The notes under the pieces were generated by a model. It searched no databases. It saw only the letters and a program-made list of their open reading frames with translations, and was not told the DNA's origin. Position numbers and translations under genes: made by a program. 64,000 nucleotides of DNA from Octopus vulgaris. Taxonomy: Eukaryota. The stretch's first letter is position 1. Every line of letters starts with the position of its first letter. Location of the stretch: positions 2,294,001 through 2,358,000 of the forward strand of contig OX597828.1 in assembly GCA_951406725.2 (NCBI GenBank), written 5' to 3'. This document shows positions 30,859 through 46,858 of the stretch, one piece after another.

Positions 30859-31118
30859 GGTCACTCTTGGACGTTACTGGTAAGGTGTAATCCAGTACAA
30901 TATGTCGCATTGGTCAGGTCGCTTTTTGGAGCGCTATTGGTAGCATGTAATCCAGTAGAACCCATTGCATGCACGGGGAGATCGAGAAATTGGTTAAAGT
31001 TGGTAGAAGTCGGCAGCCAAATTACCACCAGTAAGATACTTATCATGTCCTGTGAAAAGGCAGCAAATCGGCAGAAGTCGTTGAAGAGTTTTGCACTAAA
31101 GTAGGTTCGAGCGAAAAG

Positions 31119-37720: not shown

Positions 37721-38649
37721 TGTGTGTGTACGCGTGTCAGTGTCGGTGTGTACATACATTCATTTATGCTCGCGCGCACACACTCAGATACATACACGCA
37801 GAATCACGCACATACACGTGTGCGCGCGCACACACACACACACACACACATACACATACACACATGAGGCCGGAAGTACTTTTAGGAAATAAATTTGGGG
37901 CAAATTTGATTCCATATTATCCTATTGTGAATGAATAAAGATAAAGAATTTTAAAAGAAAAGGACTAGAGGCTGTTAGTGGCTGACAGAACAGTTAAACT
38001 GGTGGGGTGCCTTTTCACTGAACAAGAAGTTCTTTATATTCAGTGCTTCAAACGTCCAGTTGAAATATTTTTATTTGTCCCGTAAGCATTTACTAGTTTA
38101 GCGACGTCGAGTCGTCAGCGAGGCGGACGCTATGTGGCATTTCTTCTAGCGCTTTACGTTCTACCGAGATCGACTTTCTCTTTCATCCTTTCAGGATTTG
38201 AGTACAGTAGTCGATGTGAAATGCTCCATCCACTAAAATTGTTGCACTCGTGCCCAGAATTTGAAGCGGATCTTTTCGGTTTGAACGGCAGTTTTTAATA
38301 TAATTTCTAGGTAACTAAAACATTTTAAACTTCGTATACTGGTAGAATGTGTTTATAAAACATCTTTTTTCTCTTGGCTTTATTGAGAAAATTCTATAGT
38401 TTGTAAGATATTTGTTGTTTTTTTCTTCAATTTCTGAAATTTCAACCAATCAAATACGTCTATTGAGGTGAAAACATTCTGTGCCGTATGAATATATCCC
38501 TCGTTTAAACAGATTGGGTTTATTTACATTTGCGAAGAAAAAAAGATACCCTTCCCCCCCACCACTAACCCTAACCCTAACTAACCCTAATCCTAAAACA
38601 GATAGAAATGCAATAGATCAATACTAGGGTCATAATTATGTGTGACAAT

Positions 38650-38925
38650 TGTGGTGTGGTGATGAGGGAGTGTGACAGAGCGGGAGGGAGCGGAAGTGGG
38701 TCTTGCAGGTCTCGCAGGGCGCATGCGCCGGCGGAAGCGGAAGTGACAGACAGAACGCACGTGCGGCATCGACCAGGGCAGTCAGACTCGAGAACGACGC
38801 CAAGACGAGAAGACGCTAGCAAGTTGGCTCAAGGCGAATCCGGCTTCATCTCTGCAGGTAAGACCAAATTACACTTCTAATTCTTTTCCTTGTTCTGTTA
38901 CGCTCCTTTCACCACACGTATCACA
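38650..38925 (+). repeat. 5' LTR
   Basis: Matches 42631-42906 except one G/A (GTGCGGCATC vs GTGCAGCATC). Confidence 0.97.
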
Positions 38926-38937
38926 AGCTATTTCGGC
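38926..38937 (+). promoter_or_regulatory. non-canonical primer-binding site complementary to tRNA-Phe nt 1-12
   Basis: AGCTATTTCGGC abuts the LTR; reverse complement GCCGAAATAGCT is the 5' end of metazoan tRNA-Phe(GAA). Confidence 0.75.
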
Positions 38938-38977
38938 AAAATAATCACTCGGTTTCGTAAAAATTTTAAAAAAAATT

Positions 38978-39733
38978 ATGCAGACTGCTATGATTTCACG
39001 CGACCCTATAACACCGTTTTGCGGCGACACCGACGTGGTCGCTTGGTTGAGGACGGTGAAGTTGGTGGCGAAGCTACACGGCATAGCTGACCTGGCTAGT
39101 TTTATGCCGTTGTATTTGGATGGCCCGGCGTTGGCGTTATATCTGGAGATGGAGGAGACGGACCAACGCAGCGCGGACAAGGTGGAGATCCGACTTATGG
39201 AGGCCTTCGCGGAAGGAATGTTTGAAGCGTACACTCGACTGGGTAGGATGAGGTGGACAGGACAGCAGGTGGACGTGTTCGCCGGCGAGCTTAGAAGGTT
39301 GGCAAAACTTGCGGGATATGAGGGAGAGTCGCTAGAACGCACGGTCAGGTTAGCGTTCGTGACCGGCTTTCCCGACATCATGTCGGTCGAGCTACAGAAG
39401 CTCCCGAACGTGCGTTCGATGCCGATGGCCGAGATTATATCGCGGGCACGTGTACTGGTGTCGTGCAGCAGGTTGACGTCGGTAGCAGCGACTGCAACGT
39501 CGAAAAGTGGCCCAGCTAGGAGCAACGGAGAGGGGCTGGGGAAAGAACGCGTGCGATCGTTTAAGGGACAGTGTTTCCGGTGCCAGGGCCCACACATGGT
39601 CCGTGACTGCGCGTCGCCCAAGCCTGAGGTGATTTGCTACCGGTGTCGAGAGCCGGGGCATGTGGCCAGCGAGTGTCTGCGGGGAAACGGACCGCGGGAG
39701 ACTACTGCGCCGGTAGTTGTCCCTTTGGATTAG
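38978..39733 (+). CDS. gag: Gag polyprotein (251 aa) with two zinc knuckles
   Basis: ATG-initiated ORF 52 bp after the LTR; CFRCQGPHMVRDC and CYRCREPGHVASEC. Confidence 0.93.
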   Translation: MQTAMISRDPITPFCGDTDVVAWLRTVKLVAKLHGIADLASFMPLYLDGPALALYLEMEETDQRSADKVEIRLMEAFAEGMFEAYTRLGRMRWTGQQVDVFAGELRRLAKLAGYEGESLERTVRLAFVTGFPDIMSVELQKLPNVRSMPMAEIISRARVLVSCSRLTSVAATATSKSGPARSNGEGLGKERVRSFKGQCFRCQGPHMVRDCASPKPEVICYRCREPGHVASECLRGNGPRETTAPVVVPLD

Positions 39734-42594
39734 TAGCGGCGCGTTTCTCATCGTTACCTGTGGTCGACATTCTGGTGAAGGGGAAGATGTCGCGAGCCCT
39801 GGTGGACACGGGCTGTACGACGACCCTGATGACCACAGAAGTGGCAGAGACGTGGAGTGGAGGAAGCAGTGTCAGGGCAGTCGACGGAAGAGAAGTGCAC
39901 TGCGAAGGGGTTACGGATGCGCAGATTGTGGTGCAGGGACTGCAGCTGACGTTGCGAGCGATTGTGGTCGGTCACTTGGTGGACGAGATCGACGTGGTGA
40001 TGGGGATGGATGCGATCACCCGTCTGGGAGGTGTTACCGTCAACGAGGCTGGCGTAACGTTTGGGCTAGCAGGGAAGCCGTGTAGGGCGAGACCACGCAC
40101 CGACGACAACCGTGAGGAAATGGATGCGGCGCACACCATTGAAGACCAGGATTTTCGGGCTGTCTTTGATGGCGAGAGGTGGACAGTGGAGTGGCACTGG
40201 AAGGGAGAGCCCCCGATGTTAAAGAACAAAGTGGGCTGCTATCAGCATATTCTAAAAGGAGATGCCAGAAGTGAGTTCGAGGGGGAGGTGGAGCGGTGGA
40301 TTAAGGAGGGCATACTGATCCCCTGGGAAAAAGAAGAGAGCGGAGTCCTGCCACTGATGGCGGTGATACAGCCCACAAAGCGTAAGGTCAGGCCAGTGCT
40401 CGACTTCCGAGAGCTGAATGACCACGTGTCGTGTCATACAGGCGGCGAGGCCACGGATGTCTGCGGAGACACCTTGCGAGAGTGGAGGCAGACGGCGGGG
40501 GCCTCCACGATTGTCGATTTAAAGTCGGCATACCTTCAGGTTCATGTGGCTGAGAAACTATGGAGGTACCAGCTCGTCAGGTATAGGGGCCGGACGTACT
40601 GTCTGACCAGGTTGGGATTCGGGCTGAATTCAGCTCCGAAGATTATGGCAACAATTCTCAAGGCCGTCCTGGGGAAGGTGGACAGAGTAAAAAGGGCCAC
40701 CAATTCATACATCGACGACATTCTGGTGGATGAAACCGTGATACCAGCAACGGAGGTCATAGGCCACCTGAAGAGTTTTGGACTGATCGCCAAGCCGCCA
40801 GAGGCTATGGAGGGAGGTGCTGCACTGGGCCTCAAGCTATGGAGAGACAAAGCCGGCGCCTTGGTGTTCCGGCGAGGGAATGAGATCCCTGAACTGGGCG
40901 CCAGCATGAGTAGACGGGAGCTGTTCTCTGTGTGTGGGAAGCTGGTGGGACACTACCCGATTGCAGGCTGGCTCCGGACAGCATGCAGCTTCATCAAGAG
41001 ACGAGCCGAAGGAGTGAAGTGGAATGATAAAGTGGGGGAGAGGACGATCGACATGATGCAGGAAGTCCTGGTCAGGGTAGGAGCAGAGGACCCGGTGAGG
41101 GGCAGCTGGTACGTTCCCAAATCAAAGAGCGGGATCGTATGGTGTGACGCCAGTAGCATCGCAATAGGGGTTGTCTTGGAAGTGGGAGGTGTCACGGTGG
41201 AAGATGCAGCCTGGCTCAGGAAGATGGATGACTGCAGTCACATCAACGTGGCGGAGTTGGAAGCCGTGCTGAAGGGGGTGAACCTAGCCTTGAAGTGGGG
41301 GTTGCACACCATAGAAATCAGGACTGATTCAGCCACTGTACTTGGTTGGGCGACGGCAGTCATCACCGATGAGCGGAGGGTGCGGACCAAAGGGGCTGCA
41401 GAGATGCTGGTAAAGCGTCGATTGGGGATACTGCGTGAACTGACCACTGAGTTCAATCTGAAGCTGAGCGTGATCTTTGTGCCTTCCGAGAAGAACAGGG
41501 CAGACGTCCTGACCAGGGTTAAGCGAGCCTGGTTGCAAGTGCCAGAGGATACGAAGCAGGATGTAGCTGCAGTATGCCATCTGAGCAACTCGGAGTTGCG
41601 GAGACTGCACACCATGCATCACATGGGTGTGGACAGGACGTTGTTCCTGGCCAGAAAAGTCGACTCCGGCGTAACAAGACAGAGCGTGCGGAGAGTGGTT
41701 AGCAGTTGTGACAGGTGCCAGTCCATCGACCCTGCTCCGGTCGTGCATGAAGCGGGAAGTATTCCAGTGGACCAGGACTGGAGACGACTGGCGGTGGACA
41801 TAACACACTACCGGCAGGGGACATACCTCTCAATGGTTGACTGCGGACCGGGGCGGTTCGCCATATGGAGGGAGATGAGGTCAGGAACCGCAGAAGAAAT
41901 TGCGAAAGTGCTGAACGAGATATTCCTGGAACGAGGCCCCGTGGATGAACTGCTTCTGGACAACGGCACTGCATTTCGCTCGGAGGCGCTGAGAGAAATG
42001 CTTGATGAGTGGAAGGTCAACCGCTTCTTCAGGGCGGCATACCGGCCAAGTGGAAACGGGGTGGTGGAAAGGCATCATCGTACCATCAAGGCCATGGCAG
42101 AGAGGGGTCACATTTCACCAGTCAAGGCCGTGTTTTGGTACAACATGTCGCCCAGATCAGGACAGGCCGAGGAGTCGGTGCCACACAGGGCAATATTCAG
42201 GTACGAGTGGAGGCATCCGTGTACTACATCAATGCGACCCGGGGCAGAGGAAGAGCACACCTTCGTGCAGGTCGGGGAGGAAGTCTGGGTAAAACCCCCG
42301 AACGCACGGTGTACATCGCAATGGGGAAAGGGGACAATAACCTCCGTAAATTCAAAGAATAACATCTCGGTAGATGGTATGCCACGCCACGTTTTGGACA
42401 TACGGAGGATTGTCCATGCCCCGGAGGATGGGACAAGCAACAGTGGGCAGGACGATAACAACAGACAGGATGACGAGGTCGGCAGCAACACGCCAGAAAC
42501 AAGTCCTAGGGTCGCACTGCGACCACAGAGGGAGCGGCACCCTCCTCCCTGGTTGGCTGACTACGAAACCAGTTTCAGGTGCGGGAGCGAGTGA
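39634..42594 (+). CDS. pol: Pol polyprotein (protease, RT, RNase H, integrase), expressed by -1 frameshift
   Basis: ALVDTGCT; LDFRELN, VDLKSAYLQV, GFGLNSAP, YIDD; WCDAS, HINVAELEA, TDS, ADVLTR; HHCC, VDITH, LLDNG, NGVVER; no stops. Confidence 0.96.
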   Translation: MLPVSRAGACGQRVSAGKRTAGDYCAGSCPFGLVAARFSSLPVVDILVKGKMSRALVDTGCTTTLMTTEVAETWSGGSSVRAVDGREVHCEGVTDAQIVVQGLQLTLRAIVVGHLVDEIDVVMGMDAITRLGGVTVNEAGVTFGLAGKPCRARPRTDDNREEMDAAHTIEDQDFRAVFDGERWTVEWHWKGEPPMLKNKVGCYQHILKGDARSEFEGEVERWIKEGILIPWEKEESGVLPLMAVIQPTKRKVRPVLDFRELNDHVSCHTGGEATDVCGDTLREWRQTAGASTIVDLKSAYLQVHVAEKLWRYQLVRYRGRTYCLTRLGFGLNSAPKIMATILKAVLGKVDRVKRATNSYIDDILVDETVIPATEVIGHLKSFGLIAKPPEAMEGGAALGLKLWRDKAGALVFRRGNEIPELGASMSRRELFSVCGKLVGHYPIAGWLRTACSFIKRRAEGVKWNDKVGERTIDMMQEVLVRVGAEDPVRGSWYVPKSKSGIVWCDASSIAIGVVLEVGGVTVEDAAWLRKMDDCSHINVAELEAVLKGVNLALKWGLHTIEIRTDSATVLGWATAVITDERRVRTKGAAEMLVKRRLGILRELTTEFNLKLSVIFVPSEKNRADVLTRVKRAWLQVPEDTKQDVAAVCHLSNSELRRLHTMHHMGVDRTLFLARKVDSGVTRQSVRRVVSSCDRCQSIDPAPVVHEAGSIPVDQDWRRLAVDITHYRQGTYLSMVDCGPGRFAIWREMRSGTAEEIAKVLNEIFLERGPVDELLLDNGTAFRSEALREMLDEWKVNRFFRAAYRPSGNGVVERHHRTIKAMAERGHISPVKAVFWYNMSPRSGQAEESVPHRAIFRYEWRHPCTTSMRPGAEEEHTFVQVGEEVWVKPPNARCTSQWGKGTITSVNSKNNISVDGMPRHVLDIRRIVHAPEDGTSNSGQDDNNRQDDEVGSNTPETSPRVALRPQRERHPPPWLADYETSFRCGSE
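39682..39743 (+). promoter_or_regulatory. -1 ribosomal frameshift signal (slippery heptamer + H-type pseudoknot)
   Basis: G GGA AAC in gag frame, 7-nt spacer, stem GGGA-GACTAC/GTAGTT-G-TCCC, loop GCGCCG pairs with downstream CGGCGC. Confidence 0.85.
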
Positions 42595-42621
42595 GGAAGC
42601 CGGTTCAGTGATCTATAGATC

Positions 42622-42630
42622 AGGGGGGCG
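42622..42630 (+). promoter_or_regulatory. polypurine tract
   Basis: AGGGGGGCG directly before the 3' LTR. Confidence 0.8.
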
Positions 42631-42906
42631 TGTGGTGTGGTGATGAGGGAGTGTGACAGAGCGGGAGGGAGCGGAAGTGGGTCTTGCAGGTCTCGCAGGG
42701 CGCATGCGCCGGCGGAAGCGGAAGTGACAGACAGAACGCACGTGCAGCATCGACCAGGGCAGTCAGACTCGAGAACGACGCCAAGACGAGAAGACGCTAG
42801 CAAGTTGGCTCAAGGCGAATCCGGCTTCATCTCTGCAGGTAAGACCAAATTACACTTCTAATTCTTTTCCTTGTTCTGTTACGCTCCTTTCACCACACGT
42901 ATCACA
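42631..42906 (+). repeat. 3' LTR
   Basis: Matches 38650-38925. Confidence 0.97.
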
Positions 42907-42996
42907 ACAATTTCATATGACACCGCTAGAAAAAACTGCCGTTCAAACCGAAAAGATCTTTTAAAGCTATTATGCTTGTTAGTAATGGGGCGATGC

Positions 42997-45099: not shown

Positions 45100-45610
45100 T
45101 CTGTGTGAGACATTCCAGCAGTATGCGAAGTTTAGTAAAAAAAAATTAATTAAAAAATCTGTGAGCCAAACTAAACAGATCCGAAATAAGAACCCACAGT
45201 AGGGTAGAAGCCATAGCCACTCATGATAAAAAGGAATATTGGCAGAATGTCCCAGCGAAAACCTCAATAAAATGTAAGCGCAACAGACCTGATATAACGA
45301 TTCTGGATAGAGAAGAGGAACTGTACAGTTGTGGAAATTAGCTGCCCAGTGGCAGCTCAAGATCAGTGAAAAAGAGAAAATCTATGCTGAACTATTCAGA
45401 AATCTGCAGTTACTCTATCCAGATTACAAGTTCGGGTTTATATTTGTAATTATTGGGGCCCTGAGATATGTAACACACTGCCTAAATACCAATCTTGAGA
45501 AATTAGGCTTTTCAAAACCAGAAAGGAGAAAGTTAATTCAAAGACTACAGATCGAGTCCTTCACTGGAACTGTAAATGTCTGTAAAACTGCTAAGAAGTT
45601 TATCATTTAA
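45100..45610 (+). pseudogene. 3' end of RLE-type (R4/NeSL-like) non-LTR retrotransposon
   Basis: RPDI...VEISCP...EKEKIYAEL...VIIGALRYV...LEKLGF restriction-like endonuclease pattern. Confidence 0.65.
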
Positions 45611-45615
45611 ATATA

Positions 45616-46858
45616 CGAGGGGCGTTCAATAAGTAATGCCCCTGACCCACTTCCCATAGCAGTAGAGCAACGACACTTGGCACAGTTATTAGTCTTTTCC
45701 TACATAGGAACCACCCAGAGTTATGCATTTCTCCCATCGTTTGATATAGCTCTGAAGACCGTTTTTGTAGAAGACCCCAGCTTGGTCCTCCAACCACGAC
45801 GTGACTTCAGAAATCAAGGCTGCATCATCTGGGAAACGCTTTCCTTTCAAAATCAACTTCATGGCTGGGAAGAGGTGAAAATCAGAGGGTGCAAGGGGAG
45901 GAGTTCATAGCCATACGCCTGTGCTTCTGATCTGGCGACACACGAGTTGTGGACCGGAGCGTTGTCCTGCAGGAGGAGGATGCCTTTGCTGATCTTGCCC
46001 CGCCTCTTGATTTTGATAGCTTCTCTTAATTTCCTCAAAAGTGAAGCATAATAGGCTCCTGTAATTGTGGTACCATTTGCCAGGAAATCTGTCTTCACTA
46101 CTCCGTTCTGGTCCCAGAAGACTGTGAGCATAACCTTGTCAGCGGAGGGCTGCACCCTTGCCTTCTTTGGAGGAGGTGAGTCACGGTGCTTTCACTGCAT
46201 TGACTGGGCTTTGGTCTATGGATCATTGTGATGGACCCAGGTTTTATTCTGTGTGATCAGTCTTTTGAAAAATTTTGACTCATCTTCTTGGCACATCTCC
46301 AAATTCATCCTCGAGCACTCAACGCGTTCTTGCTTCTGGAAAGGTGTGAGCAACCTGGAAATCCATCTGGCAGACACCTTTTGCATATGCAAATGGTCAT
46401 GAATGATAGTTTCCACAGACCCGGTACTAATCTTGACCTTATGGGCTATTTGGCGAATAGTTATGCGTTGACCTTCCAAAATGGCAGCCTCAACTTGACG
46501 GACAGACGTCTCATCAACGGCAGAAGAGGGCGACCAGATCTGGGAGCTGTTTCTACAGAGTTCCGACTATGTTTGAATTCACAATGCCAGCGTTTTACAA
46601 GGTCATATGATGGGGCATCATCACCATAAGTTACTTTCATTTCATCAAAAGTCTCCCGTGGTGTGCGTCCTTTCAAATACAAAAACCAGATCACTGCTCG
46701 ACACTCAACAGGCTCCATTTCACACTTGACTCAGTTCAAACACCTGTAAATCAGAAACCACAATTAGTTCAGAGCTGTAATTCACCACTTAATCTATAGA
46801 GGTACAAATAAGTGCACATGCAAGTGGGTCAGGGGCATTACTTATTGAACGCCCCTCG
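45616..46858 (-). mobile_element. full-length mariner transposon (defective)
   Basis: Perfect 37-bp TIRs CGAGGGGCGTTCAATAAGTAATGCCCCTGACCCACTT, TA on both sides. Confidence 0.95.
45690..46718 (-). pseudogene. mariner DD34D transposase pseudogene
   Basis: Three ORF pieces: MEPVECRAVIWFL..RSGRP; KVSARWISRLLT..ITQNKTWVHH (first D->N); KVMLTVFWD..LLQDNAPVH; frameshifts and stop. Confidence 0.9.

Follow-up and report, generated by a model that had tools for sequence, protein, structure and literature searches.

A survey of plant elements distinguishes three types of primer, namely a whole tRNA, a half tRNA and a self-primer, and reports half-tRNA primers only from Copia (PMC6317226); the relevant text of PMC10886601 agrees. 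In the self-priming element Tf1, RNase H is described as cutting an RNA duplex between bases 11 and 12 to yield the primer (PMC7175516). As for tRNA-Phe, its 3' ends are used by some errantiviruses (PMC13524379). No description of a primer-binding site (PBS) for a tRNA 5' end was found in the titles, abstracts and selected texts searched, also when the site and variant sequences given below served as queries; Repbase, most subscription journals and bioRxiv supplements lay outside this search. The available sections of PMC13524379, PMC8556966 and PMC12859917 likewise describe no such site, and we regard an earlier description as unlikely, if conceivable. Here we describe an octopus element whose predicted PBS complements precisely the 5' end of a host tRNA.

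The element and its predicted primer-binding site

The window (the whole 64,000-nt stretch of Octopus vulgaris DNA analysed here) contains an intact LTR element of 4,257 nt, the features of which are collected in Table 1. The full complement of an LTR retrotransposon is present: two TG...CA LTRs, a target-site duplication (TSD), a polypurine tract (PPT), gag, and a pol with protease, reverse transcriptase (RT), RNase H and DDE integrase. The contigs of 4/4 public runs carry the empty site as a joint of 38644 to 42907 that skips 4,262 nt, and thus the element ends and the 5-bp TSD are fixed independently. The insertion target is a high-copy host repeat (about 38560-38649 and 42907-42958), with a flank depth in the thousands and a common empty site.

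Table 1. Features of the LTR element at 38650-42906 of the window
Feature	Position	Strand	Basis
Left TSD, ACAAT	38645..38649	+	sequence and empty-site joint
5' LTR, 276 nt, TG...CA	38650..38925	+	LTR comparison
Primer-binding site (predicted): exact complement of host tRNA-Phe(GAA) nt 1-12, adjoining the CA of the LTR	38926..38937	+	
Leader, short, A/T-rich, unconserved between families	38938..38977	+	
gag ORF, two zinc knuckles	38978..39733	+	Pfam zf-CCHC scored on one
Slippery heptamer G GGA AAC in the gag/pol overlap	39682..39688	+	sequence
pol ORF, stop to stop, 988 aa, without env	39628..42594	+	ORF and domain search
Polypurine tract adjoining the 3' LTR	42622..42630	+	sequence
3' LTR, 276 nt, TG...CA, one mismatch to the 5' LTR	42631..42906	+	LTR comparison
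Right TSD, ACAAT	42907..42911	+	sequence and empty-site joint

The two Gag knuckles have the patterns CX2CX3HX4C and CX2CX4HX4C. The Pol polyprotein displays, in order, a protease (LVDTG at 39799), the RT (YIDD at 40708), a DUF7047 domain, an RNase H (WCDAS at 41140, HINVAELE at 41239, TDS at 41323 and NRAD at 41494) and an integrase with the HHCC and DDE motifs. Its reading frame is -1 relative to gag, and we infer expression by frameshifting. The + strand of the 5' LTR has neither AATAAA nor TATAAA; its segment 38691-38745 carries two copies of CGGAAGTG and one of GCGCATGCGC, which we take to be ETS-like and NRF1-like motifs, respectively. At 38855-38927, a donor-like CAG|GTAAG is followed by a pyrimidine tract that ends at the AG beginning the PBS; a 70-nt intron between these points would delete U5 and part of the PBS, and no joint for it is found among those listed from the contigs of the 4 public runs. 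Elsewhere in the window, a 37-bp satellite array begins at 30989 (at least 112 overlapping 300-nt copies), and about 45600-46500 on the - strand lies what, by eye, is presumably a remnant of a mariner-type transposase.

The 12-mer flush with the 5' LTR, AGCTATTTCGGC, has a single occurrence in the window. The 5'-terminal 15-mer of tRNA-Phe is found 94 times in the host genome (2.8 Gb) against 0 for the control, and in 10/10 places fetched of these 94, ARAGORN called a tRNA-Phe(GAA) starting exactly at the 15-mer. The site is the exact 12/12 complement of nt 1-12 of this tRNA, and the pairing is bounded on both sides: tRNA C13 faces the terminal A of the LTR, and at the other end the base after the site is A, as is the base before tRNA G1 in 10/10 genes. 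The base after the site is hence unable to pair with the leader A, by which we rejected the pre-tRNA as primer. With an assumed set of 100 tRNA 5' ends, a match at a fixed place is expected by chance at about 6e-6. The longest Watson-Crick complement of the site within the 400 nt upstream is 5 nt, the same as in shuffled sequences. The earlier note on this DNA had claimed an intact element with near-identical LTRs (we find one mismatch in 276 nt), a 12-mer lying directly after the 5' LTR with no TGG, an exact fit of that 12-mer to a tRNA-Phe 5' end that stops at nt 1, and the lack of a complement in the LTR; all of this stands.

In the host genome, the tRNA-Phe 5' 15-mer also forms a tandem array of about 46 units with a 200-bp period (C18:30147732-30157146), and further clusters of it lie on host contigs C6 and C18.

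Conservation and variation of the site

Within the host genome, 30 near copies of the element were fetched of 40 listed, and the exact 12-mer follows ACA in 29 of them, the remaining one having a single change. The sister families, detected by their RT alone, provide the stronger test because the query for the near copies included the site. Among 20 such copies picked from the 72-78% tier (Pol 61-74% identical overall), 17 have the exact site, two are changed at one and at two bases, respectively, and the last is without an LTR pair or site. Directly beyond the site the likeness is lost: in seven sister-family copies, the 30 nt that follow are identical to the window at 3-8/30 positions, which is the level of chance. 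As controls, we used ordinary PF17917-type Gypsy elements of the same genome; 9/10 have a TGG site, and the tenth is without a clear LTR pair. A CTA-type query (see below) revealed no additional, more divergent lineage in this genome.

A metagenome scan extended the sample to 72 loci, of which 30 are without a gag N-terminus and one lies at a contig edge, leaving 41 with an anchored gag N-terminus. In these, we took the best 12-mer match upstream of the gag anchor with no further condition. The site was found with 0-2 mismatches in 37/41 relatives, whose Pol proteins are about 39-55% identical to that of the octopus element; among control windows, 0/38 reached this level. It follows ACA in 36 and TCA in one of the 37 fitted sites. 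These are invariant opposite tRNA nt 12-7, 3 and 1, and nt 2 varies once; the remaining variation falls opposite nt 4-6, where TTC (12), CTA (13), CGC (8), CCC (3) and CAC (1) are seen, and at the first base beyond the site conservation drops to background. The 41 rows are non-independent, with the 13 CTA rows forming one clade and two of the CCC rows being near copies. A TGG-type PBS is seen in 0/37 fitted relatives and in none of the host copies inspected. At loci L036, L038, L108 and L110, copies of the element or of its relatives lie close together or head to tail; some of the metagenome cases may be assembly effects.

Four of the 41 relatives do not fit. At L123, the site is broken near a contig end. 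L141 has AGCTAACACGGC at 302-313, with three changes (including one opposite tRNA nt 7) and still after ACA; it may read a different tRNA. At L154 (2017-2028) and L158 (467-478), ACA is followed by another 12-mer, CGCTATCTGTGC, the complement of which resembles a tRNA 5' end with G12, possibly reflecting a switch to another tRNA, or decay. Sibling copies keep the site, as expected from the earlier note, among the near copies, the sister families and the distant relatives alike. At the level of sequence, the comparison shows that what occupies the PBS position is, lineage-wide, a conserved complement to the 5' end of mature tRNA-Phe and is under selection.

The bases outside the LTR ends bear on the length of the pairing. 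In 37 junctions, the dinucleotide outside the left LTR end is AG in 10, GA in 9, CG in 8, GG in 7 and AA in 3, whereas the AG outside the right LTR end is fixed (14 loci gave no match). This contrast would favor a primer paired up to and including nt 12, rather than one of 10 nt with a trimmed spacer.

At E<=0.001, 3,261 cluster representatives match. Among named Pol relatives, the top-ranked one belongs to Argonauta hians (67%), and others are from Sycon, Trichinella, Trichuris, crustaceans, Aplysia and Plakobranchus. Some relatives (P0195, P0198, P0199, P0205 and P0212) are longer, at 1,340-1,420 aa, one of these clusters being named from Sycon ciliatum; they are probably fused Gag-Pol proteins. 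The viral contigs searched contain no relatives of the element.

We then asked how the site variants are distributed on a quick tree of 27 rows, after exclusion of 16 of 43 rows that were near-identical, half filled or carried a mutated site. The site labels need 7 changes on this tree against a minimum of 4. A single clade is rejected for TTC (p-AU 3e-82) and for CGC (p-AU 1e-8), such that at least one state recurs; for CCC, a single clade is not rejected (p 0.37). The sisters L111 (TTC) and L116 (CGC) are 69% identical and differ at two bases of the site, while three CGC elements of the same assembly are 49-51% identical to each other. The viral collection contains a eukaryote-type tRNA-Phe(GAA) (L196, the same as L299) whose 5' end is exactly complementary to the CTA site; it is one of 76 tRNA hits there and lies on an unrelated viral contig, between two tRNA-Ser genes. 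None of the 76 hits matches CGC, CCC or CAC, 50 metagenome loci scanned contain no tRNA genes, and among the tRNA-Phe 3' ends in the accessible supplement of PMC13524379 no variant matches the sites. TTC is the commonest form among the matches listed for the host genome (100 of 628 pattern matches). Taken as sequence, the variant pattern is consistent with the tracking of host tRNAs.

A putative tRNA 5'-fragment primer and its alternatives

We consider it probable that the 12-mer is the minus-strand PBS in a lineage of small LTR retrotransposons that is widespread and deeply diverged, with a short piece from the 5' end of the host tRNA-Phe serving as primer. The Gag zinc knuckles would assist the element RNA in invading the acceptor and D stems of the tRNA; cleavage where the 12-bp duplex ends would leave a 3'-OH at or beside U12, from which the RT would extend the fragment into U5. 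We infer nt 12, as against 10-11 or 13, as the exact 3' end of the primer. Energetically, the duplex is worth -20.7 kcal/mol compared to 14.7 for opening both stems (for unmodified RNA, with tertiary structure ignored). Given priming of this kind, the likeliest cutter is the element's own RNase H acting on an RNA duplex, at a probability a little short of even; we rank it at the head because the RNase H of Tf1 cuts an RNA duplex and because the four acidic residues of the octopus enzyme are conserved, the D-E-D-D set being invariant in both alignments.

A primer derived from a tRNA 5' end would have two consequences: plus-strand copying would stop naturally at tRNA nt 1, and the copied primer could convert the PBS to the tRNA of a new host in a single event. 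The latter would account for switches of several bases between sister lineages. In known systems, Tf1 cDNA is reported often to retain the copied PBS at its 3' end (PMC11042837), and retroviruses are described as inheriting a copy of the primer (PMC7472051). The full scenario is more tentative: an unnamed, superfamily-deep lineage (sponge, nematodes, crustaceans, molluscs) might be defined by a fourth priming mode. The element RNA would open tRNA-Phe starting at the 5' end, and the element-encoded RNase H would cleave it in trans behind nt 12; the released 12-mer would then act as primer and be written back into the PBS, so that the element is adjusted to the tRNA-Phe of every host that it enters.

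The same primer could instead be made by the host, a version to which we allot a substantial minority share of the preferred explanation. Here, a 5' tRNA-Phe fragment of 13-16 nt from a D-loop cut would be trimmed to its paired end, or a host tRNA-processing nuclease would cut the hybrid. No unfolding of the tRNA would be necessary, and a 12-bp helix has the length of the stacked acceptor and T stems that RNase Z and RNase P measure. A paired 3'-OH would nevertheless need the extra trimming, stress RNases leave cyclic phosphates, and an end fixed at nt 12 across the lineage better suits a ruler encoded by the element. In favor of the host version, D-loop cleavage is reported to yield 5' fragments of 13-26 nt, and copia to prime with a 5' tRNA half (PMC10275265); that the reported fragments are not of 12 nt counts against the preferred explanation. 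Other RNAs share much of the same 5' end, since GCC...UAGCU also starts Lys, Thr and Val tRNAs in the fetched sets, and the primer might thus be another tRNA isotype in the variant hosts or a tRNA-derived SINE RNA. The aberrant 12-mers of L141 and L154/L158, which differ opposite nt 7 or nt 12, are still like tRNA 5' ends. Yet, all 10 host 5' matches checked are tRNA-Phe genes, the five variant 5' ends checked (followed by CAG) are absent from the host genome, and a SINE RNA is an unlikely source because relatives at about 40% Pol identity have the same 12-mer, which makes it too old. We hold this reading to be improbable.

It is slightly harder still to credit that tRNA-Phe is bound for packaging, dimerisation or as part of a bipartite PBS, and that a protein or some other end does the priming. 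Bipartite tRNA binding is known from Ty3. It is also described for gypsy (PMC1635307), but in the lineage considered here the 12-mer lies exactly where a primer must end, flush with CA in 37/41 relatives, with no TGG after the LTR and no longer complement of tRNA-Phe elsewhere in any TTC-site relative. The length and flush position of the site do recall the 11-nt primer of Tf1 (PMC7175516), and self-priming by the transcript 5' end would render the tRNA match incidental. Across 44 junctions, however, the longest upstream Watson-Crick complement averages 5.2 nt (maximum 8) against 5.4 in shuffles, there is no tRNA gene in the window, and the flanks differ between copies; self-priming appears already close to refuted and is very improbable. 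The last two observations also led us to reject read-through from an upstream tRNA gene. Least probable of all is a chance match, or an integrase or packaging motif unrelated to tRNA. Twelve nucleotides are admittedly few, and if any 12-nt stretch within about 100 tRNAs is allowed to match, p rises to about 4e-4; against this, the match is to the terminal window and bounded at nt 1, conservation is at background from the very next base, and the CTA variant equals another real tRNA-Phe 5' end.

Affinities of the lineage and of its priming mode

The earlier note had called the element Gypsy, a label that we find doubtful: the integrase is Gypsy-like by profile, but the RT-RNase H is far from Ty3. 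The PR-RT-RH-IN order of Pol fits Ty3/Gypsy and is common also to BEL, Troyka and retroviruses. With Metaviridae (Ty3/Gypsy), the element further shares its TG...CA ends, 5-bp TSD and CCHC Gag and, by profile, its integrase is Gypsy-like. Profile searches of the integrase against ordinary host Gypsy integrases gave E-values of 1e-25 to 1e-37, compared to about 1e-9 to 1e-11 for the RT; the integrase translation has no literal GPF/Y. In contrast to Metaviridae, the RT-RNase H has no Ty3 or CaMV match at E<=1, where an ordinary host Gypsy control reaches 2.6e-66 (Ty3) and 3.6e-47 (CaMV), and DUF7047 is present instead of any PF17917 or PF17919 match. The structural model of the RT-RNase H (pLDDT 93) has a retroviral/caulimoviral fold, with the best structural matches at <=21% identity. 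This region may mark a lineage outside Gypsy proper. Its HIN..EL RNase H motif looks DIRS-like to us. Among prospective outgroups, the host BEL and Copia matches are broken, and tyrosine-recombinase loci gave no RT match. Cigr-1, which we considered on account of its size, is filed under Mag in the supplement of PMC6238403; the octopus element could correspond to a MolGy clade of that paper, the main text of which holds no tRNA or primer data.

Among other lineages, Troyka/Kuafuorterviruses are likewise animal LTR elements outside Gypsy proper with the same domain order and no env (PMC12440569, PMC11673190). As described in the same papers, however, they have CG...CG ends, a 3-bp TSD, a CX2CX8-10HX4C knuckle and an (I/V/L)ADD motif, unlike the TG...CA ends, 5-bp TSD, ordinary knuckles and YIDD seen here. 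Thus ends, TSD and motifs all fail, and we excluded this group; the main text of the Troyka paper makes no mention of primer, PBS or tRNA. BEL/Pao was rejected as there is no Pfam match to Peptidase_A17 (PF05380), the only likeness being one of 0.90 at the level of features in the Atlas, and Ty1/Copia as the integrase is not upstream of the RT and RVT_2 is absent.

If the preferred reading is true, it adds a fourth primer type, one that belongs to an entire lineage and not to a single aberrant copy. It would also make it possible to ask directly whether the RNase H of a retroelement is able to cleave a host tRNA duplex in trans, and by what route very short tRNA 5' fragments are made. Pipelines that look for PBSs using only tRNA 3' ends, as does that of PMC13524379, would score such elements as being without a PBS, and the site would presumably be blind to the 3' tRNA fragments that silence ordinary PBSs.

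Compared to canonical 3'-CCA priming (retroviruses and most Gypsy, BEL and Copia elements), the octopus element shares the use of a host tRNA, a site adjoining the 5' LTR and a PPT before the 3' LTR, but it has no TGG, on which ground we rejected that mode; it is predicted to bind the opposite strand of the acceptor stem and to require a cut. A 3'-truncated tRNA primer would be shared with the half-tRNA users, namely Drosophila copia, Ty5, Osser, Bianca and fungal Copia/Helenus (PMC6317226, PMC10886601, PMC10275265). The PBS of these elements pairs with the anticodon arm, whereas the complement here is to nt 1-12, ending in the D stem, which excludes copia/Ty5-type priming; the PR-RT-RH-IN order sets the octopus element apart as well. 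With Tf1/Sushi elements (fission yeast Tf1; the plant elements Tcn1 and TAR, as predicted), it would have in common a short primer from an RNA 5' end (11 nt in their case), a site flush with the LTR and release by RNase H (PMC7175516, PMC6317226). It differs from them in having no complement in its LTR, a partner predicted to be a host tRNA in trans, and an RT-RNase H far from the Ty3 group. We file the site as a variant of truncated-tRNA priming that would work most like a Tf1 primer in trans, a mode lying between that of copia, which uses a host tRNA, and that of Tf1, with its short 5'-terminal primer.
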